Shown: positions 28,803 through 49,422, numbered from the stretch's first letter. The stretch is DNA of 64,000 bases from Pontiella sp. (GCA_050290185.1 JBNKHE010000006.1:192001-256000); one strand, 5' to 3'. A program made the numbers and translations. Notes: generated by a model from the letters alone, not told the origin.

Positions 28803-29807
28803 CTATCTGCTCGCGGCAACGTCCACCAGCACCCGCCGCGTCAACTGCGCCTTGAGCATTCCCGCAATCTTCTCTTCCAGACCATTGAGCCCAACCTCAT
28901 CGACCATTTCCTCCAGCCGGTCCGGCTTCCAGGCATTGGCCATTCGCTGCCAGGCCGCGGTCCGCCTGGTCATCGCGCATTCCGCCGAATCGATCCCGAT
29001 CAGGCGTACGCCACGCAGAATGAAGGGAAATACATTGACCGGCAGGTCCGATGAACCCACCAATCCGCAGCAGGTCACGACCCCGCCGTAATTCGTTGCC
29101 TTGATAGCTGCGGCGAGGGTTTCGCCGCCTACACAGTCGACCACGCCGGTCCAGCGCGGTTTCATCATTGGCCGTTCGCTTCCTTCGAGTACGCTGGCCC
29201 GCTCGATTACCTCAGTGGCGCCGAGCCCTTTCAGGTAATCGGTTTCCGAAAGCTTGCCCGTCGCAGCCGTCACCTGAAAGCCGGCCTTTGCCAGCATGGC
29301 CACCGCCAGACTTCCGACGCCGCCGGTCGCACCGGTGACCAGCACCGGCCCCTGCTCCGGGGTCAGACCGCTTTCAACCAGTTCCTGAACCGACAGCGCC
29401 GCGGTCAGGCCGGCGGTGCCCAGCATCATACTCTCCTTGATGCTCAAGCCTTCCGGCAAGGGGACGGCCCAAGCAGACGGAACCCGGATCATCTGCCCAA
29501 ACCCCCCATCGGTCTCCATTCCCAGATCATAGCTGGTAACAATCACCTTGTCTCCGGGCTGAAAGCGGTCGTCTTCGCACGAGACCACCACACCTGCGGC
29601 ATCGATCCCCGGCGTATGGGGAAAATTGCGGGTCACCCCCGGATTTCCGGTGGCGGACAGGGCATCCTTGAAGTTCAGCGATGAATAATGAACCTCAACC
29701 AGCAACTCGCCCGCGGGCAGTTCTTCCACGGTACGCGTAACGATTTCCCGGGTATACGTCTTCTTATCAACCTGCTTGACCTGCAGGGCCTTGAAATTCT
29801 GATTCAT
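28803..29807 (-). CDS. YhdH/YhfP (AcuI-like) MDR oxidoreductase
   Basis: YSSLNFKDAL, PGIDAAG, TGATGGVGS, PFILRGV. Confidence 0.92.
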   Translation of the reverse strand: MNQNFKALQVKQVDKKTYTREIVTRTVEELPAGELLVEVHYSSLNFKDALSATGNPGVTRNFPHTPGIDAAGVVVSCEDDRFQPGDKVIVTSYDLGMETDGGFGQMIRVPSAWAVPLPEGLSIKESMMLGTAGLTAALSVQELVESGLTPEQGPVLVTGATGGVGSLAVAMLAKAGFQVTAATGKLSETDYLKGLGATEVIERASVLEGSERPMMKPRWTGVVDCVGGETLAAAIKATNYGGVVTCCGLVGSSDLPVNVFPFILRGVRLIGIDSAECAMTRRTAAWQRMANAWKPDRLEEMVDEVGLNGLEEKIAGMLKAQLTRRVLVDVAASR

Positions 29808-29859
29808 ATCATCCCCTTTCCTTAGGATTTTCCATCGTAGCGTAAGCGGGGTATTATGT

Positions 29860-29880
29860 CTACGCAGCCGCGATGTTGAC
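29860..29880 (-). repeat. vestigial leuS 3'-end copy (VNIAAA*)
   Basis: 17 of 21 nt identical to 42537-42557. Confidence 0.4.
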
Positions 29881-29893
29881 TCGTGTTGCAGCC

Positions 29894-31891
29894 TCAGTCA
29901 ACCCAGGGACGGGCCTGTTTAAAGACGAGGGTACCATCGGCCAAAAACTTGAATTCCACCTCCATCGCAAAATCAGGCCGGCCTTCGGCACCGTATGCCC
30001 GCTGGAAATGATCGTGCACCCGCTCCAACTCATCAGCCAGCTGAACCGCCTGGGTCTGCGACAGCACATGACTGCCTTTTGGTATCAGATTGGAATGGCG
30101 AATATACTGGATCTCGTATTCGCTCTGACCGCTAAGTTCGGAAATCAGGAATTCATCCGGAACAACCCCATCATCCGGATTGGTCACCAGCGATTCGCCC
30201 ACCTGTACGTTGACATAGTATCCCCGCCAGTCGGAATCATACAGGTTCCGGGTTACGGCCACCCCGTTGGCCGATTCGTCGCGATAGCTTGGATGGCACA
30301 GGACCCCCATGGCGGAGCGGAGGTGATCAATCCGGTAGAATTCGCGCTCCTCAAACGCCCGGAAACTCCAATTCCCGGCCCAGATCTGCTTGATCGTATG
30401 GCTCAGATGCCCTTCATCGGGCTTGTGCGTTTTTGAATCATAGAGCCCGGCCCCGCTGAAGCCCTCAAGATCTTCCACATTCGCACTCGAGCGGCATCGG
30501 ATCCGCGTATCCGGCGCAAACCGATGTTGCAGCGCCCCCAGTGCTTCCATCATGTCGGGCGGCAGGGTTCCGGCCCGGATCTGTCTGCGAAACTTTTTCA
30601 GGGCATCTTCCCGCACCACCTCATTGGTCTTGAAAGCCGGATCGGCCATCATGGTTTCAGCCACGGCATAGAATCCGTTGGACTGCATGAAACGGTCGTA
30701 CATCGAAAACGGCACCGCATAGCCCTCCGGCGCCATGCCACCGGGCATGATATGCCGAAGCTCGGCGACATTGGCCGACTTGGAACCATAGGCATCGTAG
30801 GCCGACCGCCCGATATCAGCCAGGGCCGCAATCGCCGATACGGAAAGATTGCGCACAGGGACCTGCGGTTTGGCGGGCCGGATCGATGCCTGGAACGTAT
30901 CAACCTCCACCTGAGATGCGGGCTTAATGGTATAGCCATCGGGCGTGAGTTCAAAACGCACATTCCGCCCGATCAGCGGCTGGATCTCCGGCCGGGTGGA
31001 GGCATTCCGGATATACGCATTGGGAATACCGTCCTGCCGGGCCTTCAGGTTGACGTGGGAGAGCGGCGTCTGCGGATCTTCCGTAATGAGACCGGCAACA
31101 CAGGCAAGATCATTTGGCACCGACCGGAAAATCACGATATCGCGCGGCGTCAAGCGGATCCCCGGTTCTGCCACCATCAATCGACCATAGGCACAACCTA
31201 AATGGAGAGGACATTCCTGCCGGCTCCCCAAAAGCTGATCCGTCGAGATGGTCCGCACGCAAGAGTTGCTGTAAGCCGCCCGTTCCTCCTCGAGCAGGAT
31301 TCGTTGCGTCTCCCCGCTGGGATGATACAACAGGCGATCCCCGGCAAACGGCATGGCTTCGGCAATGAGTCTGTAAGCGGTTTCCACGAACGGAAAACCC
31401 ACGGGATCGGAAGGCCAGAACTCGAGGGTGTAGACGCCGGCCGTCTCCCGGTCGTCTGTCGGAACCGAAACGCGGTCATGCGCAATGATGCTTCCCGCCA
31501 GATTTTTCCGGTTCCGGTCCCGAAAGTAGGTGACGGCTTCAAATGCATCGCTTCCGTCGCTGTATCCAAGAATCTCGCGGGCGAAGCAGTAATGATACAC
31601 ATGCTTTTTCGAATTCATGAAATAGAGCCTGGGCCGATCCGAACCAGCATCCATGATGACAAACTTGAGTTCAAACACCCCGTAGGCGCCCGGAACATCA
31701 TCGCGACTGGCCAGCATCTCAAAACTCAGCCGGTCCGGGACCTCCAGCGCCCCGTCCGACGGAAGCAATGGCTTTCCGTTAATCAGCGGGCGTGACGACG
31801 CCTGCGGGACCGGATCAGCGTCCGCAGCCCGCGCGGTGATTGAAGCCAGCACACAGCAAAGAATCAACCACGCTGTTTTCAGTTTTGGCAT
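29894..31891 (-). CDS. signal-peptide-bearing PEP/pyruvate-binding (PPDK nucleotide-binding) domain protein
   Basis: YGSKSAN, RSSANVEDLEGFSGAGLYDS, EVEFK..KQARP. Confidence 0.82.
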   Translation of the reverse strand: MPKLKTAWLILCCVLASITARAADADPVPQASSRPLINGKPLLPSDGALEVPDRLSFEMLASRDDVPGAYGVFELKFVIMDAGSDRPRLYFMNSKKHVYHYCFAREILGYSDGSDAFEAVTYFRDRNRKNLAGSIIAHDRVSVPTDDRETAGVYTLEFWPSDPVGFPFVETAYRLIAEAMPFAGDRLLYHPSGETQRILLEEERAAYSNSCVRTISTDQLLGSRQECPLHLGCAYGRLMVAEPGIRLTPRDIVIFRSVPNDLACVAGLITEDPQTPLSHVNLKARQDGIPNAYIRNASTRPEIQPLIGRNVRFELTPDGYTIKPASQVEVDTFQASIRPAKPQVPVRNLSVSAIAALADIGRSAYDAYGSKSANVAELRHIMPGGMAPEGYAVPFSMYDRFMQSNGFYAVAETMMADPAFKTNEVVREDALKKFRRQIRAGTLPPDMMEALGALQHRFAPDTRIRCRSSANVEDLEGFSGAGLYDSKTHKPDEGHLSHTIKQIWAGNWSFRAFEEREFYRIDHLRSAMGVLCHPSYRDESANGVAVTRNLYDSDWRGYYVNVQVGESLVTNPDDGVVPDEFLISELSGQSEYEIQYIRHSNLIPKGSHVLSQTQAVQLADELERVHDHFQRAYGAEGRPDFAMEVEFKFLADGTLVFKQARPWVD

Positions 31892-31928
31892 TCAGTACCC
31901 TTGTCCTCTTTATCGACACCCCGGCCAA

Positions 31929-33191
31929 TCATTCCTGCGCGTTGGAGTCAACAAACCAACCGCTGTAGTTGACGTCATGGCGATCCGCGATTGCCCTCAT
32001 GTATTTCGAGTTCTTGAAGACAGCATTCAGATTGGAAAGCGTTACCTTGCCGCGCAGCACAAGCAGGTAGTATCGGCTTCCATCCCGAGCCTTTTCCTCG
32101 GATATCTCGCCAACCTTGAAGGCCGTTTCCCCTATTTTTGAAACCAGGGCCTCCAGCGGTGGCTTTTCATCCGACCACAAGTAATACGAAACCACCTGCT
32201 CGCGGCAAATATCCGTTCCGCGGGAGCGAACGGTTGCGAGGGTTTCCAAATCCTCCGACTCATGCTGGGCAGCCCAAAAGCGGTCATAGGTTTGCTGTAG
32301 CTGTTCCTGTGTGACCTGAACGGTTTCCGCGCCGGCGCAATTCGCGATCTGTTCCGCCAAAAACTCATTCAAAGGATACAACGCATCAAAGTGCGAGGCG
32401 CCTTTAATAGCAAAGCAGTGTAGTTTTGGATTCTTGTTCGCCGCCGCCATCTGTTCCAACTGCCCGATGTTCCCGCCGCTTCCTTCGATCAGATAGGTGG
32501 GCGATGAAATCGCGTTGATATAGACGGCCGGAGACCGAAGCGCATCCTCCTTCTTGTTCGCCGGATCATAGTTCACCGAATCCGGCCCATAGGCCGACGG
32601 CGCCGATACGGCACCAAATGCAAATACGGCCTTGAACTCCTTCGTGGCCTCGGCCGTCAGCAGCGCCAACGTTCCGCCTGTGCTGTGGCCGCCCAGATAA
32701 ATCTGCTTTGGGTCGACATAAGGTACTTTTTGAAGATATTTCAGTGCAGCCAAAACATCGTCTACTTCCCCCAGAAACGATTCCTGTTTCCCCGGATTTC
32801 CGCAGCTTCCCCGGAAGCTGGGATACATCATCACCACGCCGGCTTCATGATATGCCAGCGCGGATTGATCATTGTCATAGGAGGAGGGCTCCCAGATCCA
32901 TTCGCCTATACCACCCGGAGGGAAACCGCCCGTTATCCAGATGATCGCCGGATATTTTTTATTCACGTTCTCGGGCCTACTTAGATAGGCCTGCATATCA
33001 CCGATCGCTGTTGGATACTTTACGATGGAAAACGCACTATCCGGCGGCTTGGCCAAGGCGCTCTTGTCGCTGATTGTGCGAACCAGCTCCGTCTTAAAGC
33101 CCTTGCGCGCCTCAAGAAGCGCAGTTTCTGCAGTTCCGCCATATACCAGGGAGAAGAAGAATGTGAACGTTGCGATCAGTTTGAATTTCAT
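31929..33191 (-). CDS. secreted alpha/beta hydrolase (S9-like) with extra C-terminal domain
   Basis: Signal peptide, GGHSTGG nucleophile motif, GASHF. Confidence 0.85.
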   Translation of the reverse strand: MKFKLIATFTFFFSLVYGGTAETALLEARKGFKTELVRTISDKSALAKPPDSAFSIVKYPTAIGDMQAYLSRPENVNKKYPAIIWITGGFPPGGIGEWIWEPSSYDNDQSALAYHEAGVVMMYPSFRGSCGNPGKQESFLGEVDDVLAALKYLQKVPYVDPKQIYLGGHSTGGTLALLTAEATKEFKAVFAFGAVSAPSAYGPDSVNYDPANKKEDALRSPAVYINAISSPTYLIEGSGGNIGQLEQMAAANKNPKLHCFAIKGASHFDALYPLNEFLAEQIANCAGAETVQVTQEQLQQTYDRFWAAQHESEDLETLATVRSRGTDICREQVVSYYLWSDEKPPLEALVSKIGETAFKVGEISEEKARDGSRYYLLVLRGKVTLSNLNAVFKNSKYMRAIADRHDVNYSGWFVDSNAQE

Positions 33192-33323
33192 GGTTCTCCT
33201 TTTATATAATATCGCGTACAGGACGCATGCATATGCGATCCGTTAGCCCGTTGTACCATTCATGGATTCGTGACAAAATACGAAACGTTTAAGATCAACA
33301 TCAAGGGATGGAGCGGAAGGCGA

Positions 33324-33389
33324 TGAAACTGCAATGTTCACCAAACACCCCGAAACCACAATCACCTTGCGGATGATTTTTCCATCGGG
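33324..33389 (-). repeat. degenerate leuS 3'-end copy (PDGKIIRKVIVVSGCLVNIAVS)
   Basis: In-frame translation matches the LeuS C-terminus; the stop codon is lost. Confidence 0.85.
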
Positions 33390-33947
33390 AAAACCGTACC
33401 TTTTGGCGGGTTTGACGGCAGCTTCACTTTTGTCGTTGGAGGCTCAGGCAGGACTCATTGATGCTGCGGCCAACTAATGTGATTTTTGCCACGAAAAGGC
33501 ACAAGGATTCACAAAAAGAAAGCACGCAGTTTTGTACTCCCCGTTAGCTTTGCATTTTCCTGCCAGCTTATCTTTACCAAAAGATGCACAAGAGACTCAT
33601 AACCATGAGAAGCATAAAGGATTCAATGCGTTCCTTTTTGCGTATTGGAAGCGTTCACTACGTTCCTTATCTGCTTCGCAGATTATCGGCGCGTTGTTTC
33701 GCGAGGGTTAAAATCCATTGGGTTTGGACTTTGCCGCGCCAGGTCGTTTGTGACTATTCGCTCGTAACTTTTCATTCACAATATTTAATCGCCGGAGCAA
33801 TAGTTACTGACCCAATCCGCATCGCACATCAACCCATTCAACTTCCCGTCTAATCTCACAACAAAATATTGAGCTTTCATTTTGAATATATAATTATGCT
33901 CTCTTAAACACATCTCATGTGTATTAAATCATAGAAAGGTTGTTTCC

Positions 33948-34484
33948 ATGAAAATCGCTCGTCTCATCAAGTTTAGTCTCATGTCCGTTGCGACCATCAC
34001 CCTCCTTACCGGATGCGGTACAATTTCCGGCATTAACGCTTCTAAAGGACAAACTATAAGGAATGCATCCAAGTACGATCAGATTGCCGTAATGGATTTC
34101 TCCAATAAAACAGCGAAGAAAAACGCAGGCGTCATTTTTGCCGATCGTATTGCTGACAAACTGGAAGCTAAAGGCGGATTTAAAAACGTTACGCGTAATA
34201 AGCCGGAGGGTAATGCGCTGGTCATATCCGGCACGATCACGCGTTGTGAAGATGGTAATGCAACTGCACGTATGTGGATTGGATTGGGCGCGGGAAGCTC
34301 ATACTTTGACGCCGATGTAAAGTTTAGCGGGAATTTGGAATCCAGTGAATGGGGCACCATAACGGTTGATAAAAACAGCTGGGTGCTGGGTGGTGCAGTG
34401 GCGGCATCTCAGGATGTAGATTATTTCATGAATGAAGCTGCAGATAAAATATGCGAAGAGCTTGAGAAGACAACCACATTATAA
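33948..34484 (+). CDS. DUF4410-like lipoprotein
   Basis: Lipobox LLTGC; G..T.R.WIGLGAGSS motif. Confidence 0.75.
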   Translation: MKIARLIKFSLMSVATITLLTGCGTISGINASKGQTIRNASKYDQIAVMDFSNKTAKKNAGVIFADRIADKLEAKGGFKNVTRNKPEGNALVISGTITRCEDGNATARMWIGLGAGSSYFDADVKFSGNLESSEWGTITVDKNSWVLGGAVAASQDVDYFMNEAADKICEELEKTTTL

Positions 34485-34516
34485 TCACGCTGACCACAAG
34501 ATCGGAAACAACAAAC

Positions 34517-35176
34517 ATGAAGAAGAAACAACTACTCATCCTCCCGCTCTTAGCCCTTGTATTTCTTGAAACAGGTTGTACGTCCTATAGCTTCCGAGGC
34601 GCTCATGCCACACCCGCCCCGACAAATCCCGTTAGTCTGGATAAAAAATACAAACTGACAAGCTACAACAATAGTTTCAAGGCATCTGCAACTCCCTGGT
34701 CCATAACCGGCTACGGAGCAATCAAGCTCTCCAAAAGAGATATTGAAAGACAACTCGTCGATCAATATCCCAATTACTTCACCCGCGATGAACAGGGGAT
34801 TCCAATCAAAGTATCTGTTGATCTCGAAAACACGAAGCGACACATGTGGGGCCTCGTGCCCTATTTGGCAACCCTCGGAATCTATCCCGCGAGGATTATA
34901 AATTTTGAGGACGACTGCGCGGTTACCGTCAGCGTTCTCAACGCAAAAAAAACGGGAAATGTACGTTTCCGAAGCAACTCATGGCTCAGTGTCTGGACAC
35001 CGTTCGGTTTAACAAGAAAAGATAAACCGGATAACTTTACAGGCGAACACCGACACGGCAGTGGTGTTATGATCGCGCCACACCTAAGCTCCAAATGCGC
35101 AACCGACCAGAAGGAAACCTATTTGGTCGAAGTATGCGATGAAGTGGCCGCAATAATTATGTCTTGGCCCAACTGA
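34517..35176 (+). CDS. hypothetical lipoprotein
   Basis: Signal peptide ending ETGC; co-oriented with the preceding lipoprotein. Confidence 0.75.
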   Translation: MKKKQLLILPLLALVFLETGCTSYSFRGAHATPAPTNPVSLDKKYKLTSYNNSFKASATPWSITGYGAIKLSKRDIERQLVDQYPNYFTRDEQGIPIKVSVDLENTKRHMWGLVPYLATLGIYPARIINFEDDCAVTVSVLNAKKTGNVRFRSNSWLSVWTPFGLTRKDKPDNFTGEHRHGSGVMIAPHLSSKCATDQKETYLVEVCDEVAAIIMSWPN

Positions 35177-35202
35177 CCGTCGACACTCGCTGGTTAAGAC
35201 GG

Positions 35203-35238
35203 AAAGAATGACTGGGTTTCATATTCCAGTCATTTTTT
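35203..35238 (+). terminator. intrinsic terminator
   Basis: aatgactgg...ccagtcatt stem followed by a T-run. Confidence 0.7.
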
Positions 35239-35241
35239 GCG

Positions 35242-35310
35242 TTACGAAACCGCGATGTTCACAAGCCGGCCGGAAACGACGATGACTTTGCGAATGGTTT
35301 TTTCTTCCGA
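35242..35310 (-). repeat. leuS 3'-end copy ([22 protein letters not shown])
   Basis: 69 bp in frame, including the stop codon. Confidence 0.92.
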
Positions 35311-35437
35311 ATGAGGCCTCGTTGCCGAGTCCAACCCGGCTCATGGGGCGAGCCCCTATTGGACTTTACCGGAGACCATGTTGCACGAAAACAGCGTTGA
35401 GTTAGCCCCCGCTGTGGATTCTAATGGGTGAAACATT

Positions 35438-37219
35438 ATGAAGATTCTACTGATCACACCTCCGTTGCTTCAACCCAACACGCCTTATGCCGCCACGCCG
35501 CTGCTCACGGCGTGGCTGCGGAATAACGGACATGATGCGGTTCAGGCTGATCTTTCGCTGGAACTGTTGCTTAAACTTTTTTCCAGGGAGGGGGTGGCGG
35601 CGCTCTGCCGAACGCTGGAAGCGTACCCGGAGGCGGAGGCTTTTCTGGAAGCAGAGCCGGATTATCTTGAGACCATTGATGAGGTGATGGCCTTTTTGCA
35701 GGATCAAAATCCGGCGGCTTCCAAACAGATTGCGCGGCGCGGCTGGCTTCCTGAAGGCCCGCATCTCTACCATGCCTACGAGCAGGAGGAGCAGTTCGGA
35801 TGGGACTTTCGCGGCCTCGACGAGGCGGATCGCGCACGGCATCTGGCCAGTTTGTATCTCGACGACCTCGCCGAAGCCGCCAAACTGGCCGATCCGAATT
35901 TTGGTTTTTCCCGCTATGCGGAAAAGCTCGGCGCCAGCCTTCCCCGGTTCGGAAAACTACAGGAAACGCTGGAGGCGCCCCCGTCCCTGTTTTCTTCTTG
36001 GCTGGTCGATCTGACAGACAGGCAACTGCAAAAACATGCGCCGGACATGGTGGCTCTGACGGTTCCATTTCCGGGATGTCTCTTAGGGGCGCTAACCATT
36101 GCCCGCCGAATCAAACAAACCGTTCCCGATATGCACGTCACCATCGGCGGCGGTTATGTGAATACGGAGCTACCCGAACTGCGCGATCCCTCCATTTTCG
36201 ATTATGTCGATTCCATCACCCTCGATAGCGGCATGCTTCCGTTGCTGCAGCTGGCCAATCAAGCCACACCCATCCGAACCTTTGTCCGCGAGGGCGGAGC
36301 GGTTCGGTATTATGAAGACGCCGCAACACCCATTGCCCACAACGCCTTGCCCGCCCCCGTATATGACGGTCTTGAGCTGAACCGCTATTTCGGCCTCTTT
36401 GAAATGCTCAATCCGGTTACACGGCTCTGGTCGGACGGGCGCTGGAACAAGCTTATGCTGGCGCACGGCTGCTGCTGGCGCCGCTGTGAATTCTGCGATA
36501 CGTCGATCGATTATATCCGCCGCTACGACCCCGCCGAACCGTCCGTGATCTGCGACTGGATCGAAGCCATGATTGCGCAGAGCGGTTTTAACGGATTCCA
36601 TTTTGTGGATGAATCCCTGCCGCACGATCTACTGGACGGATTATGCGATGAAATCCTGCGCCGCGGGCTGGAGATTGAGTGGTGGGGCAACATTCGTTTT
36701 GAAAACCGCTTTTCAAATGCGCTGATTCAAAAAATGGCCGCCTCAGGCTGTATTGCCGTAACCGGCGGCTTGGAAACCTGCAACGACCGGACCTTAAAGC
36801 TGATGCGCAAAGGTATTACGGTAAACGGCGCAACTCAGGTGCTTGAAAATCTGGCCGATGCGGGAATCCTGACCCACGCCTACCTGATGTATGGGTTTCC
36901 AACCCAGACCGAACAGGAAACGCTTCAGGCGCTGGAAACCATTCGCCGCCTGTTTGATGAAGGCATCCTGCACTCCGCCTTCTGGCACTGTTTTGCCCTG
37001 ACCGCACACAGCCCGATCGCATGTGATCCCGAGAAATATTCCATCGCGCTGAAAGAGCCGCCGCCTGCCGACTTTGCCCGCAATGAAATTCCGTTCGATG
37101 GACACTTCGACCACGATCCAAAAATTATCGGCGAGGCCCTGCGCGTTGCCACCTACAACTATATGCACGGCATTGGCTTCGACCGCCCCGTTGATCAGTG
37201 GTTGGACGCTAACCCCTGA
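35438..37219 (+). CDS. B12-binding-type radical SAM protein
   Basis: AHGCCWRRCEFC, FHFVDE, WWGNIRFE, YLMYGFP. Confidence 0.9.
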   Translation: MKILLITPPLLQPNTPYAATPLLTAWLRNNGHDAVQADLSLELLLKLFSREGVAALCRTLEAYPEAEAFLEAEPDYLETIDEVMAFLQDQNPAASKQIARRGWLPEGPHLYHAYEQEEQFGWDFRGLDEADRARHLASLYLDDLAEAAKLADPNFGFSRYAEKLGASLPRFGKLQETLEAPPSLFSSWLVDLTDRQLQKHAPDMVALTVPFPGCLLGALTIARRIKQTVPDMHVTIGGGYVNTELPELRDPSIFDYVDSITLDSGMLPLLQLANQATPIRTFVREGGAVRYYEDAATPIAHNALPAPVYDGLELNRYFGLFEMLNPVTRLWSDGRWNKLMLAHGCCWRRCEFCDTSIDYIRRYDPAEPSVICDWIEAMIAQSGFNGFHFVDESLPHDLLDGLCDEILRRGLEIEWWGNIRFENRFSNALIQKMAASGCIAVTGGLETCNDRTLKLMRKGITVNGATQVLENLADAGILTHAYLMYGFPTQTEQETLQALETIRRLFDEGILHSAFWHCFALTAHSPIACDPEKYSIALKEPPPADFARNEIPFDGHFDHDPKIIGEALRVATYNYMHGIGFDRPVDQWLDANP

Positions 37220-38795
37220 GAATAAACTGCTCGGCGGCCTTCATTCCGTCGAGCGCGGAACTGACGATTCCGCCGGCATAGCCCGAACCCTCACCGCACG
37301 GATACAATCCCTTGGCGGAGCAGGATTCGCCGTTTGGATCGCGCAGCATCCGGACCGGGGCCGAACTGCGGGTTTCGGCGGCATAGAGTGTCGCCTCCTC
37401 CAGCCGGGTGTCGTTCAGCTCGCGCAACATCCTGGGGATAGCCGACTGCAGCGTTTCGGAAACAAAGTCCGGTAGCATATTCTGAAGCAGCGCCGGAACC
37501 GCTCGGGTACAGGAACGTTCCCCGGGAAGGTCGCCGACGCTTCCTTCCAGAAAATCAATGAGCCGTGCAGCGGGCACTCCGTAATCGGAACCACCCGCTT
37601 CAAAGGCCGCGCGTTCCATCTTTTTCTGGAACTCGACTCCCGCCAGTGCAGGATTTCCCGCTTCATGCCCAAAATCCGCCATATCCACCGGAACCAGAAA
37701 GGCCGCATTGCCAAACGGCTTGTCTCGCGCCGATAGACTCATCCCGTTGGTGGTCAACATTCCTTCCGAAGAGGCGCAGGAAATAACCAGGCCACCGGGA
37801 CACATACAGAAGCTGTAGCAGCGGCGGGCATTCCCCTCTTCCTTCCGGGTCAACCGGAAACTGGCGCTACCAAGGTTCGGAAGCTTTGCCCAGCGGCCAT
37901 ACTGTGCCGTATCAATCCGGTGCTGCGGAATTTCGAGCCGTACGCCAACCGCGAAAGGCTTGGCTTCGATCGCTACATTGCTTTCGGCCAGCATGGAATA
38001 GATGTCGCGCGCACTATGGCCTGTCGCGAGGAAGCAGGCATCGGTGCGGATTTCCTTGCCGGAAACCACCACCCCTCTCAGTGCGCCGTTTTCAATCTGG
38101 ATCTTCTCCAGTCTGGAATTAAACGCACAAGCTCCGCCCAATTCCCAGATCCGGTTGCGGACGGCGGGAATAATCTGCGTCAAATCGTCGCTTCCGATAT
38201 GCGGGGCGGAATCAATCAGGATGTCGGGAGACGCACCGCAGGCGACCAGTGTTTCAAAAAAGCGGCGGATGCGGGCGCGGTCTTTTGAGCGCGCCGTCAG
38301 CTTCCCGTCGGAAAAGAGCCCTGCACCACCCTCGCCATAAAGGACGTTGCTTTCCGTATTGAGCTCCCCGCTTTTCCAGAATGCTTCAACCTGCTCCGAG
38401 CGAGCATCAGTTTCCGCACCACGCTCAATCAGCAAGGGTTTATACCCCGCCTCCGCCAGCGTCAGCGCCGCCATCAGCCCGGCCGGCCCGGCACCGATCA
38501 CAACCGGCGGATGTTCGCCCTTAACATGGTCCGGGAAAACGAGTGCAGGCTCCGGCTTCGGGGTCTTTTCAATCTGATTGGGTTGCAAGCGCGGCGGTTT
38601 ACCCCGGTAGTCGACGTCCACCGAAAGAATGTAGCGCGGCTCTTGATCCTTTTTTCGGGCGTCCAGCGAACGTCGGATAATTTCAAGGTTATCAAGCTGC
38701 TCTTTTCCGCATCGAAGCTTCCGGCAGATCGCCTTAAGCACATCGCTCTCGCCGTAGGCCAGTCGCACAGATAGTTGGTTGATTCGTAGTTTCAC
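37209..38795 (-). CDS. FAD-dependent oxidoreductase (COG2509-like)
   Basis: IGAGPAG, GEGGAGLFSDGKL, FCMCPGG, GEGSGYAGGI. Confidence 0.9.
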   Translation of the reverse strand: MKLRINQLSVRLAYGESDVLKAICRKLRCGKEQLDNLEIIRRSLDARKKDQEPRYILSVDVDYRGKPPRLQPNQIEKTPKPEPALVFPDHVKGEHPPVVIGAGPAGLMAALTLAEAGYKPLLIERGAETDARSEQVEAFWKSGELNTESNVLYGEGGAGLFSDGKLTARSKDRARIRRFFETLVACGASPDILIDSAPHIGSDDLTQIIPAVRNRIWELGGACAFNSRLEKIQIENGALRGVVVSGKEIRTDACFLATGHSARDIYSMLAESNVAIEAKPFAVGVRLEIPQHRIDTAQYGRWAKLPNLGSASFRLTRKEEGNARRCYSFCMCPGGLVISCASSEGMLTTNGMSLSARDKPFGNAAFLVPVDMADFGHEAGNPALAGVEFQKKMERAAFEAGGSDYGVPAARLIDFLEGSVGDLPGERSCTRAVPALLQNMLPDFVSETLQSAIPRMLRELNDTRLEEATLYAAETRSSAPVRMLRDPNGESCSAKGLYPCGEGSGYAGGIVSSALDGMKAAEQFILRG

Positions 38796-38918
38796 GCCGA
38801 TCCCTTAAATAATTTTCAGCAATCTATTCTCAAAATTTCAGCCGTGCAAGACGGGACGGGTTAATACAGAAAGGCCCCTTTGTGGACAAGGATGCGGGGC
38901 TTTCGAGTTCTTGAGGTG

Positions 38919-38942
38919 GTTCGACTACGAAAGCGCGATGTT
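38919..38942 (-). repeat. vestigial leuS 3'-end copy (NIALS* plus tcgaac)
   Basis: gttcgactacgaaagcgcgatgtt versus gttcgactacgaaacggcgatgtt at 42531-42554; includes 6 nt downstream of the stop. Confidence 0.7.
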
Positions 38943-39061
38943 GCCAGGTTCGATAGCGCAGGGTAATAGCAAAATCATTATTTGGCACTTCGTTGCCCCG
39001 CATGCGCGGAGCCTCTTTCGCCCTACAGGCTCAGGTCATAGGACCGATCCCTGCCCGCTTA

Positions 39062-40114
39062 TTAAATCTCCTGTGAGGGTTTGCCGAAGTCCTTGATCGT
39101 CGCTTCAAGCGGTGTGCCACTGTATTTCTTCAGAAGTCTGGCGGCATCTCTTTCCTGACTAGAAGTGCAAGGGTTGTTGCGATAGTCCATGACATCGGTG
39201 TTGAAGTACTCGTCGGCAAAATCTTCCATATCATCCAGCCCATCGATATAGGTTTTTACCTTCGGATCCATCTTGAGCTTGGCGAGAAGTTCTTTTGCCT
39301 GTGCGGCGTGTGGCGCCTTTCTAACCTCCGCAAGCACCGATGCGTTTTCATAGGCAAAGTAGGGATCGGTTTCATATTTGGCCTCGATTTCGCCGAAGAG
39401 CATTTCGGAAAATTCGTCTAGCTCGGCTTTACTGCCCTTCTTTGCGAGGTATTTCCCATTCAGCCAGGTAATGGCATCAAAAATCAGGTCTTCGCCGGCC
39501 CAGACGTGTCCGCCTGGGAAATAGCGAAGACGACCGTCCTTTTTAATGCGCTTTTGGAATGTGATGGTCATGTCCCAGCGGTTGAAGCAATAGCCTCCGC
39601 ACAGCCCGTAGGCCAGCGCATCGTTTTGATAGTTATTCCCAGAATCTCCGGCCCCGCATGGAATAATTCCGATGATGTTGCTCTTCATCTTATTCGCCAA
39701 CCAGAAAGCCTCGCGGCCACCGCCGGAAAAGCCGGAGGCGTAGCAACGTTTTTCATTCACATGAAAGTGGTCAAATACATCCTCGACCATGGCTTTGATG
39801 GCTTGTTGCGATTTATCGTTGCGGTTGCTCGACTCCCTGGACATTACCAGAATCCAGTTGTTCTTCTCTGCGCCGCGAACATAGCGCTGAATTCCGCTAC
39901 CTTTCCCGCCGCCCGGATGCATGACGAAGAGAACCGGATATTTATCAGCTCGGTTGGTGTCATAGCTGGTCGGGAGGTATAGAAGGTAGGAGAAGTCCCG
40001 ATCGTCCTCGCACTTGATCCCCTCAATAATCTGACCGGTCTTGTGTTCCTGGGCAAACAGTGAAGATGAAAGAGCAATAAGCAGAGCGGATGCGGCAAGA
40101 CATTTTTTAATCAT
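39062..40114 (-). CDS. secreted alpha/beta-hydrolase/esterase-like protein
   Basis: Signal peptide, YLLYLP, YPVLFVMHP, GFSGG, GGHVW. Confidence 0.8.
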   Translation of the reverse strand: MIKKCLAASALLIALSSSLFAQEHKTGQIIEGIKCEDDRDFSYLLYLPTSYDTNRADKYPVLFVMHPGGGKGSGIQRYVRGAEKNNWILVMSRESSNRNDKSQQAIKAMVEDVFDHFHVNEKRCYASGFSGGGREAFWLANKMKSNIIGIIPCGAGDSGNNYQNDALAYGLCGGYCFNRWDMTITFQKRIKKDGRLRYFPGGHVWAGEDLIFDAITWLNGKYLAKKGSKAELDEFSEMLFGEIEAKYETDPYFAYENASVLAEVRKAPHAAQAKELLAKLKMDPKVKTYIDGLDDMEDFADEYFNTDVMDYRNNPCTSSQERDAARLLKKYSGTPLEATIKDFGKPSQEI

Positions 40115-40233
40115 AACTTTTCCTTCGGCATAAGATTGGTTAATCCCTGAAAAGACAATGACACTCCTAAGGAGGAGGACGCAAATCAAAAGCGATACCT
40201 CTCCGCCAGCAAGATGTAACCGAGATCCCCGAT

Positions 40234-40284
40234 CACCAGCCGCCCGGGGACGACGATGACTTTGCGGATGGTTTTTCCTTCGAG
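40234..40284 (-). repeat. truncated leuS 3'-end copy ([17 protein letters not shown])
   Basis: 17 codons in frame. Confidence 0.9.
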
Positions 40285-40297
40285 TCAGAGATGTATG

Positions 40298-41029
40298 TTA
40301 AACCTCGACTACGCCCTTGCAATCGGGATAGGCGGAACAGCCCCAGAATGAGTTGCCGGCGTTCTGGCCGGAACGGGCCGTGCGGAGCACCATCGGCTTG
40401 TTGCATTTCGGGCAGGCGGGAACCGGGTCGTTCGTCTTTTGTTTCTGGCGCTCCTTCAAGCGTTCGGCGGCTAGCAACTCGCTATAACCGCCCTCGGAAA
40501 CAAACTGCTCCTCCAACGCCGCGATCTGCTGATCGAGTAGAAAGTTGGTCTGGTGGATCAGGCAGATCAGCGCGTTGGCCCGAACCGCCGGGTTTTCATG
40601 CTCCAGCCATTCGGCATAGAGCATGGAGCGCTCCTGATCCGTCAAATCAGCCAGATTGGACCGATCCTCCCGATCTTTCTTGAACTTCCTCGGCACATTC
40701 CGCACCGCAAGAGCTTCCGCCGAGTTCAGCTCCCACATTTCCAGCCGCCGATGCCGCAGGAAATCCTCGTAGTCGAGCAGGAGTTCTTCAAGGCTGGCCC
40801 GCGCAACATTCACCAGCCGCAGTTCCGTCTGGCTGGAGGTGGCGGAAGCCCGGCTTCCCTCCGCAATGTTCTGCCGCCCGCTCCGCGCGGCCTGCACCAT
40901 CTGGTCGATGGTTCGCGAACGGGAATCGACAAACTTTTCACAGAACCAAACCGTGGCATCATAGATGATCGTCGCCGTCTGGAACGTCGCCAACTTCCGG
41001 TATCCCCCGCTCTTCCGTATTTTTCCCAT
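40298..41029 (-). CDS. four-helix-bundle (23S IVP/Avd-like) protein with suffix domain and topoisomerase-type C4 zinc finger
   Basis: GGYRKL, DQMVQAARSGRQNIAEGS, ARASLEELLLDYED, CPKC...FWGCSAYPDC. Confidence 0.85.
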   Translation of the reverse strand: MGKIRKSGGYRKLATFQTATIIYDATVWFCEKFVDSRSRTIDQMVQAARSGRQNIAEGSRASATSSQTELRLVNVARASLEELLLDYEDFLRHRRLEMWELNSAEALAVRNVPRKFKKDREDRSNLADLTDQERSMLYAEWLEHENPAVRANALICLIHQTNFLLDQQIAALEEQFVSEGGYSELLAAERLKERQKQKTNDPVPACPKCNKPMVLRTARSGQNAGNSFWGCSAYPDCKGVVEV

Positions 41030-41104
41030 GCCTTCCTCCAGTAATTCGTCCGATTTGTCAGATCCGACTGATTACCAGAGAAAGATATTCTTTAAAAGAA
41101 CGGT

Positions 41105-41173
41105 CTACGAAACCGCAATATTCACCAACCGGCCGGGGACGACGATGACTTTGCGGATGGTTTTGCCTTCCGA
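41105..41173 (-). repeat. leuS 3'-end copy ([22 protein letters not shown])
   Basis: 69 bp in frame with stop; 15 nt differences from leuS over the last 66 nt but only one amino-acid change (V/I). Confidence 0.95.
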
Positions 41174-41331
41174 GTGAGAACTCGTTGCCGCGACCAACTC
41201 AGCTCATGAGCGAGCTAGGACTAGTCTTTTTTTCAGAAGCGAAGTCTGAAAACATTATTTCATAGGATCGCCCCCGGTTCGGCGGCGGAAAAAAGGAGCC
41301 GAGACAACACTCGGCTCCGCGCTTCATAATC

Positions 41332-41553
41332 CTATCCCTTGGGAGGATAGGGATCTTTTCGGTAGGTTCGTTCTTCCCGAATTCTACCATCAGGACGGTG
41401 AACAAACACCTGACCTTTCCGCGGTATCGCGAGATCACGCGCCTGATCAAGTGCTTCGGATTGAGTTCCTGCGACTGAAGAACAGCGTGATGCGCCTTCG
41501 CGCTTAACACCCCATTGATCACCGTTTTTCACTACATGATACTTTTCTTTCAT
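41332..41553 (-). CDS. DUF2188-family small protein
   Basis: YHVV..W.VKREGASR....TQ.EA...AR...VHRPDGRIRE..TY..DPYPPKG; AAGGAG RBS; downstream hairpin at 41295-41318 plus T-run. Confidence 0.88.
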   Translation of the reverse strand: MKEKYHVVKNGDQWGVKREGASRCSSVAGTQSEALDQARDLAIPRKGQVFVHRPDGRIREERTYRKDPYPPKG

Positions 41554-41612
41554 TATCTAGCTCCTTGTTAGTTTAGAGCTGGGAGGAGGCTTCCTCCTCC
41601 CAGCAGTTTGCC

Positions 41613-41717
41613 TTATACGTAGAAGCAGAACGGTTTCCCGTCGCGTCTGTACACTCGGCGCTTAGTGATGTAGTGCACGAAATATTTGCAATACACCTTG
41701 CGTCGTGGTTTGCCCAT
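41613..41717 (-). CDS. 34-aa basic small protein MGKPRRKVYCKYFVHYITKRRVYRRDGKPFCFYV
   Basis: Below the ORF-track cut-off; AAGGAGG 6 nt before ATG; followed by a perfect 12-bp hairpin at 41578-41604. Confidence 0.65.
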   Translation of the reverse strand: MGKPRRKVYCKYFVHYITKRRVYRRDGKPFCFYV

Positions 41718-41892
41718 TTCGGGCCTCCTTACGGCATTGCCGCTTAAGAGTTTCCTTCTTGACGCATTAGGCAGGAGCTGAGATAAACAAGCTTTGAAAC
41801 GGAGCTACTGCCTAGTGCATCGGCTCTTGTCATCGGTACTGGTAATACCTATGACACCGACAGCTGTTAACCCTCGAGGTTAGCAGCTTTTT

Positions 41893-42342
41893 TTATACTT
41901 CGTCATGCATAGCATCCTCCCTTTCATTATCTTCATTCGAATCAGCATCTAAACGCACGATGACAATCATCTTTTCGGCATAGACCTCTGGATCGTATGA
42001 AATTGTTTTTTTTGAATAGTTTATTCCACAATAATCGAGGAAAGCCTTTGCCGCTACATGAGCCGTTAGATTGTCAGTATCGTTAGGGTTAGAAGGCCGT
42101 AATTGTAGCTTTGCAACGTCCTCTATTTTTTCTTGGGTAAATCCCAAAGCGATTGCATTGCGGTTACGATCATAATAAAGCTCCACGAACCAGTCCCCGT
42201 CTTTTATCCCAAGGCGTTTCAGTAATCCTTGCGATAAGCCTATATGGCCTTGTTTTCGAATACTAACCTTCGATACGTAGCTTCCTTTAACATTTCTGAA
42301 TCGCTCGAATTCGAACCCCTCAATTGTTCTTCTCGTTCTCAT
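41893..42342 (-). CDS. hypothetical protein, AT-rich (possible AbrB-like beta fold)
   Basis: Open frame with atypical codon usage; start uncertain (42342 ATG or 42408 GTG). Confidence 0.65.
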   Translation of the reverse strand: MRTRRTIEGFEFERFRNVKGSYVSKVSIRKQGHIGLSQGLLKRLGIKDGDWFVELYYDRNRNAIALGFTQEKIEDVAKLQLRPSNPNDTDNLTAHVAAKAFLDYCGINYSKKTISYDPEVYAEKMIVIVRLDADSNEDNEREDAMHDEV

Positions 42343-42418
42343 ACCAGCACCTGAACAAATTCTTTTATCCGTGTCAATTAACAAATTGTGCCTTTCTGCG
42401 ACCACCAAGCGGCTTGCA

Positions 42419-42434
42419 CCACAATATATTGTGG
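42419..42434. promoter_or_regulatory. perfect 16-bp palindrome CCACAATATATTGTGG (NrdR-box-like)
   Basis: Fits the acaCwAtATaTwGtgt pattern; lies upstream of 41893-42342. Confidence 0.5.
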
Positions 42435-42480
42435 TTATTCCATGTTTTTAAATTAACCAGATGTTCTATGAGATGTTTAT

Positions 42481-42509
42481 AAAAAAAGCCCCGAAAATAC
42501 GGGGCTTTT
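42481..42509 (-). terminator. leuS intrinsic terminator
   Basis: aaaagccccg-aaaata-cggggctttt with a long T-run on the minus strand. Confidence 0.85.
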
Positions 42510-42536
42510 GTGCATTAGACATATGATTGAGTTCGA

Positions 42537-45059
42537 CTACGAAACGGCGATGTTCACGAGGCGGCCGGGGACGACGATTACCTTTCTAACCGTCTTTCCT
42601 TCTAACCAGGATTGGACCTTTTCGGCGGCGAGGGCGATGGCTTCGATCTCTTCCTTAGTGGCGGAGGTGGAAACCTTGATCTGATCGCGGACCTTTCCGT
42701 TGACCTGGACGGCCATGCCGATTTCATCGCGCTTGAGGGCTTCTTCATTCACGACGGGCCAGTCGGCATTCATGATGCCGGCGGCGTGGCCGAGTTCAAC
42801 CCACAGCTCTTCGGCGATGTGCGGCGCGAAGGGCGAGATGAGCAGGATGACGTTTTCAATGGCATCGCGGAAAACTACCTTAGCGGATTCGGAACTGTCG
42901 TCCGAAATCTTGAGGGCGTCGATGGCGTTCATCAGTTCCATGATCGCGGCAATGGCGGTGTTGAAGGTGAAGGCGCCGTCGAGTCCGCGGGTGATCTGCA
43001 GGATCGTTTCGTTGGTCTTGCGGTAGAGGTCGCGTTCGGCGTCGGCCATGTCGGCGATAACCGGCTTTTTGCCTTCAACCGACTTCAGCAACTCGAGGTT
43101 GTCGGCGACGCGGCGCCAGATGCGTTTGAGGAAGCGGGATGCGCCTTCCACACCGGAGTCCTGCCACTCGGCTTCCTTTTCGGGTGGACCGATGAAGAGC
43201 GTGTAGAGGCGGACGGTGTCGGCGCCGTATTTCTTCAGCAGTTCTTCGGGACTAACCACATTTCCCTTGGATTTGGACATCTTGTAGAGGTTTCCGTCGG
43301 GGCCCTTTTTACAGATCATACCCTGCGTAAAGAGGTGTTTGAACGGCTCGTCAAAGTCGATCAGGCCGAGATCCTTGATGGCTTTGGTGAAGAAGCGGGC
43401 ATAGAGCAGATGCAGAATGGCGTGCTCGATGCCGCCGATATATTGGTCGACCGGCATCCATTTGTTGGAAATTGCGGAATCGATCGCCTGCGAAGCATCC
43501 TGTGCACTGAGATAGCGTAGGAAATACCAGGAGGAATCGACGAAGGTGTCCATGGTGTCGGATTCGCGCGTGGCTGCCCCGCCGCATTTCGGGCAGGTGC
43601 AGTTCATGAAGGATTCCGAGCCCTTGAGCGGCGATTCGCCTTCGGCCTTGAATTCAACATCGGTCGGCAACAGGATCGGAAGGTTTTCTTCCTTTTCCGG
43701 AACCACACCGCAGTCGGTGCAGTAAACCATCGGAATCGGTGCGCCCCAGTAGCGCTGACGGGAAATGAGCCAGTCGCGCAGGCGGAAGTTAATCTTTCCG
43801 GTGCCAAATCCTTTTTCTTCGGCGAGGGCGATCATCTGCTTGATCGCTTCGCGGTTGTCCACGCCGGAAAAGTCACCGGAATCAACGCAGGTGCCGTCTT
43901 CGGTATAGGCGTCTTCCATTTCGTCAAGAACGAGCGAGCCTTCCGGATTCTGGATGGAAAGCTTGATCGGCAGGTCATATTTCTTGGCGAAGGCAAAGTC
44001 GCGGGTGTCGTGCGCCGGAACCGCCATGACCGCGCCGGTGCCGTACATGAGGACATAGTTTCCGACCCACAGCTCGATTTTTTCGCCGTTGTAGGGGTTG
44101 ATCAGGTAGCGCCCGGTAAAGCGGCCTTCCTTCTCCACTTCGTCGGCTTCGCGGTCGAGGTTGGTGAGCTTGGAGCTGGCCTTGATAAATTCGAGCACCT
44201 CTTCTTCCTGCGGCAGGCCGGCGATGAGGTTTTTCAGCTCAGGATGTTCGGGAGCCAACGCCATATAGGTGCAGCCGTAGATGGTATCGACGCGGGTTGT
44301 GTAGCAGGCGATTTTATCAACATTGTCCCCTGCCCCGTCTTCGCGCGGCACGATCGGGAAGTCGATTTCCGCGCCTTCGGAGCGGCCGATCCAGTTTTTC
44401 TGCATGGTCTTCACGCGGGTCGGCCAGCCGTCGAGCGTGTCGAGATCATCGAGCAGGCGCTGGGCATAGTCGGTGATTTTGAAGAACCACTGGTCCATCG
44501 ATTTTTGGTCGACTTCGGAGTCGCAGCGCTCGCAAGCGCCGTCGACCACCTGCTCGTTGGCCAGTACGGTCGCGCACGACGGGCACCAGTTGACGTTGGA
44601 ATTCTTTTTATAGGCGAGGCCCTGTTTGTAGAACTGGATGAAAAGCCACTGCGTCCATTTATAGTAGTCGGGCATGCAGGAGGTGACTTCCTTGTCCCAG
44701 TCATACATGCAGCCCCAGGCGCGGAGCTGTTCTTTCATGGTGGCAATGTTGGCGGTGGTATATTCCGCCGGCGGTGTGCCGGTCTTGATAGCGGCATTTT
44801 CGGCGGGCAAACCAAACGAGTCCCAGCCCATCGGAGTCAGCACATCGAAACCCTGCATCTTCTTATAGCGCGCAACGGCATCGCCAATGATGTAGTTGCG
44901 GCCATGACCCACATGGAGCTTGCCCGACGGATACGGGAACATCATCAGGCAGTAGTACGGGTTTTCCGCCGCCGCCAGATCGGTATTAAAATCGCCGTTC
45001 TCGTCCCAGAAGTTCTGCCACTTCTGTTCAATCTCGTTGTAGGGATAATCGTTGTTCAT
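42537..45059 (-). CDS. leuS: leucine--tRNA ligase
   Basis: [41 protein letters not shown]. Confidence 0.98.
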
Positions 45060-45326
45060 TGCCGGACTCCGTTCAAATTCCTAAAGAGCGGGCATATTAG
45101 GGATTTAGCTATACATTTCCACCTTCAAAGGGCGGAAAATTCGCGGACTTACGGAAATAGATTGATGCGGGACTCATTTAAATATGCAGCTTTGCTCGCG
45201 TAATCCACCATGCTTGCATGAGTGGACGGGATTGGAACCTTGCGACAGCAAGGGTGCGTCCTCCAATGCCTTATTGATTGAAGCAAAGCTTGAAACATTC
45301 ACTGAATGCGGAGAGAAATTGAAGAA

Positions 45327-45731
45327 TCAATCCAAGGTCTTATCAACCCGACAGGCAGTTGGTTCGCTGGGGCGGAACGGGCGGATGAAGGCTTCGGAAA
45401 AGTCGTACCCGCCCATGAAGTCCTCGATGGAATCCTCGTCGGTTTTGCCGAGAAGCCCCTGATTGATCAGGTTGAAGACTATATTGCCGAAGTCAATGCA
45501 TTCGTTGATCCCCCACTCGGAGAGCACCAGCTTGGAAACAGGACCGTATTCCTTTATCGCATACTCACGCATGCCTTCAAGCAACTCCTGACCGCTAACG
45601 TGGCGGGGTTTGTCCAGCTGGCTCACGGTATGGTCGAGTCCTTCACGGACAAACAGATAGGCTTCTGCGGTATATCGTCTATCCGATTCGAGGATCGGAG
45701 CCAGTAAATCATCTATGGTTTTGTACGTCAT
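45327..45731 (-). CDS. PVC-restricted conserved protein (Minf_1886-like)
   Basis: DRRY..EAY.FVREGL, RHVSGQELL, WGI....DFG.IVFNL, DSIEDF. Confidence 0.75.
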   Translation of the reverse strand: MTYKTIDDLLAPILESDRRYTAEAYLFVREGLDHTVSQLDKPRHVSGQELLEGMREYAIKEYGPVSKLVLSEWGINECIDFGNIVFNLINQGLLGKTDEDSIEDFMGGYDFSEAFIRPFRPSEPTACRVDKTLD

Positions 45732-45736
45732 GGTTT

Positions 45737-49410: not shown

Positions 49411-49422
49411 GGAGGCTTGTTA

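Follow-up and report, generated by a model that had tools for sequence, protein, structure and literature searches.

How can blocks of unrelated genes accumulate behind an essential housekeeping gene, each bounded by a copy of that gene's last codons, if no recombinase gene lies among them? This question is raised by a 64,000-nucleotide stretch of Pontiella sp. DNA (GCA_050290185.1, JBNKHE010000006.1:192001-256000; here called the window), in which the region downstream of leuS carries repeated copies of the leuS 3′ end. A first-pass annotation, made from this sequence alone, had proposed that small integrase-less cassettes insert serially at leuS, in the manner of an integron whose attachment (att) site is the gene end. 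We favor the reading that duplicative, Campbell-type single-crossover homologous integration adds DNA at a recombination hot spot behind leuS, and we consider the case for it to be about evenly balanced. The source genome (G000) comprises 3.58 Mb in 163 contigs and is 95.5% complete.

The leuS 3′ end is repeated downstream of the gene

A profile was made from 30 live leuS ends, and an nhmmer search of the window with it yielded five matches, all on the minus strand. A direct-repeat search and six-frame translation agreed on the same five copies (the live end and copies c1 to c4). Together with an 18-nt tail pattern, these searches bore out the direct repeats and the two short vestiges (v1 and v2) that had been described before: four extra copies of the leuS 3′ end and two vestiges lie in direct order downstream of leuS.

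42537-45059, minus strand: leuS (leucyl-tRNA synthetase, 840 aa), with Pfam tRNA-synt_1, editing, and anticodon-binding domains
42538-42670, minus strand: live repeat copy, the last ~134 nt of leuS (nhmmer E 2.7e-35)
41105-41249, minus strand: c1, displaced tail copy (nhmmer 41106-41172, E 1.6e-19; repeat search; alignment)
40233-40298, minus strand: c2, 5′ portion of a tail copy (nhmmer E 1.3e-15, profile positions 53-118 of 135)
38919-38942, minus strand: v1, 18 nt of terminal leuS sequence followed by 6 nt downstream as at the live end (92% identity to 42531-42554)
35242-35385, minus strand: c3, tail copy with a 42-nt insert (nhmmer 35242-35308, E 1.1e-16; alignment)
33323-33451, minus strand: c4, 129-nt tail copy (nhmmer E 1.1e-18, profile positions 2-133)
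29860-29880, minus strand: v2, vestige of the last ~18-21 nt of leuS at the distal end of the array (2 mismatches in 18)

In copy c1, similarity to leuS runs from about codon 803 through the stop, and its translation preserves a 21-residue terminal peptide; in c3, which also begins near codon 803, a 22-residue tail peptide is readable. Alignment showed that both copies are broken after GGCTCG, at the same position, by a 41- to 42-nt insert (about 41170-41210 in c1 and 35307-35348 in c3, hand-counted from the alignment). Copy c2 (17 residues in translation) stops ~17 nt short of the stop-codon position. It corresponds to a part of the profile that is complementary to v1, and from their sequences the two look like halves of one copy, separated by a 1.29-kb block of DNA (block C). 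Copy c4 had been given as 66 nt and is actually about 129 nt long; its stop codon is gone, and several amino acid changes are seen in translation. The core of v1 (38925-38942) has one mismatch to the 18-nt tail, and that of v2 (29860-29877) has two. Beyond v1 and v2, a search of 762 kb (window plus loci) for orphan 18-nt tails returned one match, with three mismatches; the reversed-pattern control also gave one match.

The copies had been said to decay with distance from leuS. This is true of their intactness alone; their identity to the live end (c1, 77%; c2, 78%; c3, 80%) does not fall monotonically. Five congeners have live leuS ends that are 91 to 94% identical to c1, compared to 77% for the live end of its own genome. 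A further concern of the first-pass annotation, that such repeats might be equally common elsewhere, did not materialize: in the whole genome, the repeat is confined to the leuS locus, apart from one 14-nt chance match. Among the assembled contigs of four public runs of one study, single contigs span c4, c3, v1, and v2 (28500-39043), and the live tail (41133-42648) is also found on a single contig; the public-run contigs break at c1 and c2.

The 41- to 42-nt insert (CATGAGCC...GGCAACGAGGCCTCACTCGG) occupies an identical position in five leuS-tail copies of four genomes. Other insert sites are L043:2148-2209, L009:1451-1511, and L021:9288-9347; variants also occur at non-leuS sites, and the insert pattern matches 10 of the 89 genomes of the order, with four copies in G041. 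The insert could represent either a very small repeat specific to this target or a sign of common descent and gene conversion. Just upstream of c1, the motif TCCTATGAAAYRATGTTTTC (window 41248-41267, corresponding to C6:233248-233267) has eight copies in the genome, compared to none in the control. Three of its copies head a common ~140-nt noncoding element, and one sits just upstream of an open reading frame (ORF) with a start resembling that of an IS200/RAYT-type transposase (judged by eye only). As a conserved element end the motif was rejected, since its copies sit in unrelated contexts. Also rejected was a relationship between the v1 flank and a ~180-nt direct repeat at C10:17947-27049 (four to five copies, 2.3 to 3.8 kb apart, plus C4:307144-307328; no tRNA is near), as the likeness is superficial and the repeat was undetected in the window.

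The copies bound blocks of unrelated genes

In agreement with the earlier description, the repeats bound blocks of unrelated genes, here lettered from leuS outward.

41250-42536, minus strand: block A, low GC (44-49%), with the leuS terminator hairpin, a 171-aa gene, and a DUF2188 gene
41893-42408, minus strand: the 171-aa gene of block A, of unknown function
41332-41553, minus strand: the DUF2188 gene of block A (Pfam; PADLOC candidate defense family PDC-S16, E 1.5e-25)
40298-41029, minus strand: block B, gene for a four-helix-bundle (4HB) protein with suffix domain and Top1-type zinc ribbon (Pfam; NCBIfam TIGR04258/TIGR02436)
38943-40232, minus strand: block C, a 1.29-kb insertion of intermediate GC with one 375-aa gene (39062-40189)
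35386-38918, mixed strands: block D, with genes for a B12-binding radical SAM protein (35438-37219, plus strand) and an FAD-dependent protein (37209-38795, minus strand) (Pfam; NCBIfam)
33452-35241, plus strand: block E, low GC (43-47%), with three small genes at 33584-33853, 33948-34484 (DUF4410; Pfam), and 34517-35176
29881-33322, minus strand: block F, with genes for an alpha/beta hydrolase-RraB fusion (31929-33191) and a PPDK_N/PEP-synthase-like protein (29894-31891) (Pfam; NCBIfam)
Beyond v2: an acrylyl-CoA-reductase-family gene (28803-29807), followed by flavin reductase and rlmN (NCBIfam TIGR02823, TIGR00048)

The block C gene had been called an esterase. One weak, sub-threshold NCBIfam match of PHA-depolymerase type (E 3.5e-9, 36.5 bits against a cutoff of 150) points in this direction, and there is no Pfam match to sustain the name.

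The blocks were compared with relatives from Pontiella and other Kiritimatiellales, which are mostly metagenome-assembled genomes with mechanically called ORFs. Block A is the newest insertion; its genes are 76% identical to those directly behind leuS in G042, and the slot is without A in G011, G021, G063, and G062. The 4HB gene of block B is the usual downstream neighbor of leuS in the genus. Together with c1, it is 82 to 90% identical to G011, G063, and G062, and the 4HB gene alone is 79% identical to G021. Homologs of block C (66 to 69%) were found in G057, G056, G022, and G059, and the loci of the first two (L053 and L054) are without leuS tails. The block D gene pair is single copy in G000 and has homologs (66 to 83%) in most genomes of the order. 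It is adjacent in G010 (80%) and G056 (78%) with no leuS tail alongside; in G056, it adjoins a pair of 219- and 395-aa genes that trails leuS elsewhere, with no recognizable tail remnant in between. No homologs of block E were found in the relatives' leuS loci examined. The PPDK-like gene of block F has a 69% homolog adjoining the rlmN block in G006, and the acrylyl-CoA-reductase-family gene of the distal flank is also found 13 kb behind leuS in G042. At the leuS-proximal end (around the stop), 22 of 24 nt are the same in blocks A and D, and an insert-bearing copy lies at the far end of both.

GC content is low in blocks A and E (43 to 49%), intermediate in C, and 54 to 59% in B, D, and F, like the flanks (D, 56 to 59%). 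From composition and homology, the blocks appear to be a mix of low-GC imports (A and E) and normal-GC modules that look resident (B, D, and F). By GC, homologs, and neighborhood, B, D, and F are not obviously foreign, a point on which the integron-like reading is not supported.

Regarding the surroundings of the array, dnaA and dnaN (window 47683-50517) lie 2.6 kb from leuS, which makes the array origin proximal, and this synteny is kept in G011, G019, and G010. Farther on (50951-52274), beside a tRNA-Gln gene, there is an overlap between a radical SAM gene and a small gene with an HNH-endonuclease domain.

Relatives differ in the slots between the repeats

At least one further tail copy was detected with the profile in 11 of the 29 relatives' loci with a live leuS end (10 of the 18 loci from the genus and 1 of 11 from other families), and more tail copies lie on contigs of relatives that end at the repeat. 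In the cultured type strain P. sulfatireligans F21(T) (G069), three exact-pattern tails are found on one contig, where leuS is followed by a 2.6-kb cassette and a tail, then by a 0.75-kb cassette, another tail, and the 4HB gene. In G011 and G021, leuS is directly followed by the 4HB gene, whereas block A and a displaced tail lie in between in G000. A different ~1-kb cassette fills the slot behind leuS in G063, whose leuS is 94% identical to that of G000, and in G062; G042 has A-like genes behind leuS and no extra tail. Since slot contents differ among G000, G011, G021, G063, G062, and G069, gain, loss, and replacement coincide with the repeats. The idea that leuS is a recurrent insertion site, with growth next to the gene, therefore stands, and relatives differ exactly in the repeat-bounded slots. 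Cassette cargo behind leuS in relatives includes Fic (three loci), AbiEii, STAND ATPases (two loci), HepT, and a Tle1-like lipase, and also a Dam-type methylase with a DpnII-like nuclease and a C5 methylase with a HEPN protein.

The extent of the copies varies widely. By tblastn and profile, their left ends lie at codons of about 714, 733, 744, 797, 801-809, 812-814, 818-821, and 824, thus about 16 to 127 codons before the stop, and the long copies of G030, G013, and G026 measure 97, 108, and 127 codons, respectively. In G054, a 420-nt repeat (91% identity) that comprises the leuS tail, the spacer, and codons 1 to 105 of the 4HB gene flanks a STAND-ATPase gene; this gene and the cassette that follows leuS in G004 share 82% identity. 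In G011, the 2.8-kb insert is flanked by a 202-nt repeat of the 4HB gene 3′ end, not of leuS. The integron-like model thus keeps its insertion at leuS but finds no support for a single att site, given left ends from codon ~714 to 824 and duplications that run into the next gene.

The live ends also vary. Over 31 close pairs, leuS identity was 0.869 in the gene body, 0.833 from -120 to -31, and 0.808 in the last 30 nt, and G062 differs from both G000 and G063 over the last ~120 nt of leuS. Judged by such comparisons, live leuS tails are mosaics.

Other genes of the genome carry the same scar

A genome-wide screen for direct repeats (60 to 600 nt, at least 75% identity, 0.3 to 15 kb apart, away from attC sites) in which one copy lies in a long ORF and the other does not gave 14 candidate pairs out of 89. 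Seven of the 14 read as a gene tail (76 to 388 nt) that is repeated 1 to 9 kb downstream around inserted genes. They are listed with the tail-donating gene before the inserted genes.

mfd; Fic
GH127; AbiEii plus two genes
UvrD; 2098-aa RCC1-repeat protein
lipoamide-dehydrogenase-like gene; glycosyltransferase
Orn/DAP-decarboxylase-like gene; unknown gene
1199-aa gene; FG-GAP and DUF11 proteins
multihaem cytochrome; S8-LRR protease

Taken together, the seven loci (L141-L147) are C1:231000-237000, C1:790000-794500, C4:25000-35000, C9:178000-189000, C3:329500-334728, C8:161500-169000, and C2:309000-321500, and no PF00589 match was found within them. Tail duplication is therefore not leuS specific; at least seven other G000 genes carry the same scar.

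At the mfd locus, the closest relative, G063, has an empty site. The live mfd tail of G000 is 95.7% identical to that of G063. The displaced copy is 82% identical overall; its 5′ half is divergent and its 3′ half near-identical, followed by the native downstream flank. Such a chimera, foreign in its 5′ and native in its 3′ part, is what one crossover between the resident tail and a foreign tail fragment on a circle should leave behind. The adjacent Fic gene has its best homolog (84%) 7.6 kb behind leuS in G054, and no homolog adjacent to mfd was found in the 52 other genomes of the genus. In a second empty-site comparison, at the GH127/AbiE locus, the relatives matched the GH127 gene alone.

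These data bear on whether the array could have arisen wholly from within, by tandem duplications and deletions behind leuS and with no horizontal input. The host-like GC of blocks B, D, and F, their homologs throughout the order, and the local 420-nt duplication in G054 would fit such an origin. However, blocks A and E are low in GC, and block A and the STAND cassette turn up, differently arranged, in other genomes; no block occurs twice inside the array, and the displaced mfd copy has a foreign 5′ half. We regard purely internal rearrangement as quite improbable.

No recombinase was found at the leuS loci

The absence of a recombinase from the window, noted in the first-pass annotation, was confirmed: no recombinase or transposase domain was found in its 53 ORFs, and one protein has an HNH domain. 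It extends to relatives. Tyrosine or serine recombinase domains were found in 0 of 233 ORFs of 37 leuS loci from 31 genomes, among the matches listed (the best five families per protein in sets of more than 30 proteins), and the mobility-type matches in these loci were only an IS30-type rve domain, an IS66 transposase, and a DDE_3 fragment. Ten PF00589 (tyrosine recombinase) matches fall in nine ORFs of G000, all on contigs other than the leuS contig, C6; no serine recombinase was found in the G000 genome. In near-closed genomes, the tyrosine recombinase nearest to leuS lies 94 kb (G007), 206 kb (G069), or 614 kb (G042) away. G030 and G042 have three tyrosine recombinase matches each, none near leuS; those of G030 (two of about 300 to 330 aa and one of 482 aa) are not on the leuS contig despite the 97-codon tail copy of this genome. 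No leuS-like site was found beside any G000 recombinase, and a degenerate tail pattern had no matches in viral contigs. A tRNA scan found no tRNA within the array, and an Rfam search of 29000-46000 gave four sub-threshold matches, none at the repeats.

These results can be set against the possibility that the blocks are decayed islands that once carried integrase genes, entered one after another at the leuS 3′ end, and have since shed these genes. Precedent comes from the tycheposons of Prochlorococcus, for which 937 integrase-carrying elements were reported (10.1101/2020.12.28.424599). As described there, they integrate serially at tRNA genes, newcomers lying next to the intact target and older elements being pushed outward, with scattered partial target copies and defense and niche cargo, all of which resembles the leuS array (10.1101/2020.12.28.424599). 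By the same account, tycheposons differ in having their own tyrosine recombinases, tRNA targets, and defined att sites; at leuS, no integrase element was found, the target is a protein-gene tail, and boundaries vary. Decay would also suit the lower intactness of the tail copies farther from leuS. Yet there is no integrase fragment in the 233 ORFs, even in slots that differ between the very close G000 and G063, where, with leuS 94% identical, integrase loss would have to be both recent and complete, and the blocks are merely 0.8 to 3.6 kb in size. We therefore consider decayed islands improbable. Direct repeats of the target 3′ end flank the units, as they do in gene-end integrative islands, but the leuS locus departs from integrative-element accretion on two defining points: no member with a recombinase was found, and the boundary does not appear constant, even though truncations and orphan tails cluster ~20 nt before the stop.

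The array is not an integron

A true integron, chromosomal and very large, is present elsewhere in G000. Genome self-comparison revealed attC-like repeats with R″/R′ cores (...AAC ... GTTRRS), which amount to at least 166 attC sites of ~85 nt, spaced 300 to 1500 nt, on 47 contigs. The integron regions are C5:1-4540, C15, C16, C20, C1:1-12000, C3:1-5500, C4:245000-258000, C7:245000-248000, and about 40 small contigs. A tyrosine recombinase of ~460 aa, labeled IntI-like by eye from its sequence, is encoded at C5:3149-4540 with attC sites directly beside it, and a second lies at C3:254423-255805.

An integron integrase acting on a secondary site in the leuS tail would have both the enzyme and the abundant attC sites at hand. 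However, a profile built from 20 of the genome's own attC sites had no match in the window, where the best E was 0.64, or among leuS loci L001-L055 of the relatives. Nor did the window junctions, folded as single-stranded DNA, form an attC-like hairpin; they folded no better than shuffled sequence (z -0.14 to 0.56), and the junction folds of two relatives gave z -1.5 and -1.9. Moreover, integron insertion is not known to duplicate 70 to 420 nt of its target. We hold this explanation to be very improbable. An integron secondary-site origin was also rejected for block C by itself, as its junction letters fit a G/TT crossover only if a mutation is assumed. The leuS array is not an integron or a cluster of attC sites lacking integron integrases (CALIN). 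The array resembles both in its ordered small units of one to two genes, its growth at one end, and the lack of a recombinase inside; unlike them, it has no attC bounds, its repeats are copies of coding sequence, and no integrase lies alongside. A literature search found no paper on integrons in Kiritimatiellota.

Homologous integration or a recombinase in trans

For homology-anchored integration, we infer a circular intermediate, RecA dependence, and a route of DNA entry. A small circular DNA would bring in part of the leuS 3′ end of a relative, along with the sequence that had followed it there, and this circle would recombine with the resident leuS tail. leuS would be kept intact, with the cargo placed immediately downstream and a partial copy of the tail beyond the cargo, and repeated rounds would stack blocks outward. 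Thereafter, the tail copies could offer the host RecA pathway portable homology through which cassettes are replaced, deletions arise, and gene conversion takes place, so that a dedicated integrase or att site would be unnecessary. leuS may be favored because its tail is strongly conserved across the genus, the gene is essential, and it lies close to dnaA. The duplicated segments are arbitrary in extent and cross gene borders (66 to 420 nt at leuS loci and 76 to 388 nt elsewhere), v1 and v2 being exceptions. recA, dprA, and a comEC-like gene are present in G000; since the same families occur in most control genomes, this speaks for feasibility only.

A number of points weigh against homologous integration. 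Seven independent copies end at profile positions 101 to 118 of 135, v1 and v2 begin at about 113 to 117, and the live leuS tails of G000 and G063 diverge in the last ~30 nt only; such clustered breakpoints resemble a preferred site more than random crossovers. The vestiges (18 to 21 nt) are shorter than RecA normally needs. Both ends are common to blocks A and D (24 nt at the stop; the 42-nt-insert copy). An illegitimate event is required to form the first circle with a tail, and chimerism was examined for one displaced copy only, that of mfd. Neither a circle nor a clean excision junction was found in the assembled contigs of the four public runs. Two joints in these runs, 41170 to 42952 and 40284 to 42613 (7 extra letters), were rejected as excision products because their sides are short or their depth is low; the best reading of them is leuS from co-occurring relatives with c1- or c2-like tails.

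The signs of a specific site (clustered ends, shared ends of A and D, and short vestiges) are the reason why a site-specific recombinase acting in trans is kept as the main rival. Under this explanation, the blocks would be nonautonomous integrative elements with an attachment site in the last ~20 to 30 nt of leuS, akin to CIMEs, pseudo-SCC cassettes, or the remnants without an integrase in tycheposon islands. Truncated copies and orphan tails cluster ~20 nt before the leuS stop, block C is a clean insertion into a tail copy at that very point, the leuS-proximal ends of A and D and the short divergent stretch between G000 and its closest relative would fall into place, and nine tyrosine recombinase ORFs elsewhere in G000 could supply the enzyme. 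Set against this are the variable left ends and lengths of the copies, some of which reach 420 nt and extend past the gene border, and the eight unrelated gene tails, which would demand eight specificities. In addition, none of the 37 loci holds an integrase-bearing member, the tail pattern is missing from the viral contigs, no G000 recombinase adjoins a leuS-like site, and G030 combines its long copy with only three tyrosine recombinase matches, none of them on the leuS contig. On balance, a recombinase in trans seems to us possible but unlikely.

Pontiella, and perhaps many uncultured lineages, may have a second gene-capture system that is independent of integrons. Its "tail-anchored cassettes" would be small circles, each with a housekeeping gene's last codons, that move from genome to genome and integrate by a preferred crossover ~20 nt before the stop, catalyzed by a host-encoded or trans-acting enzyme or by an efficient short-homology pathway; leuS would be the main platform and mfd, uvrD, and others minor ones. 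We put this forward tentatively, as a rather doubtful proposal.

Relation to known systems and implications

Integrase-less cassettes between direct repeats are also known from cis-mobilizable elements (CIMEs) and the accretion of integrative conjugative and integrative mobilizable elements in streptococci and from SCCmec and pseudo-SCC (staphylococcal cassette chromosome) at the rlmH (orfX) 3′ end in staphylococci. Their repeats are short fixed att cores used by the integrases or Ccr recombinases of sister elements. CIME and SCC cassettes, which are mobilized in trans, share with the leuS array the direct repeats of a housekeeping 3′ end, tandem stacking, and the lack of an integrase of their own; unlike there, neither a sister element with a recombinase nor a fixed core was found at leuS. 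Ordinary chromosomal hot spots likewise have variable content between conserved anchors, are often without mobility genes, and are rich in defense genes. Their content is turned over by homologous recombination, with a double crossover in two flanking core genes that is not known to leave duplicated gene ends.

In mechanism, the array matches insertion-duplication (Campbell) integration, a laboratory technique in which suicide plasmids integrate via one cloned homologous fragment. As at the loci described here, the duplication is the homologous fragment, of arbitrary length, the gene stays intact, and the displaced copy is chimeric (as for mfd). A literature search at the level of listings and abstracts found neither a natural, recurrent Campbell-type build-up of arrays behind an essential gene nor a paper describing leuS-anchored or tail-anchored arrays.

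For annotation, the locus is a warning that repeated gene ends without an integrase need not mean degraded islands or assembly errors. The presence of an array in the cultured P. sulfatireligans F21 makes excision, circles, and recA dependence directly testable. If the tails of essential genes are indeed portable homology, such hot spots can gain genes without any mobile-element machinery, and tail-borne homology would help to explain the integrase-free defense and accessory islands of many uncultured bacteria.

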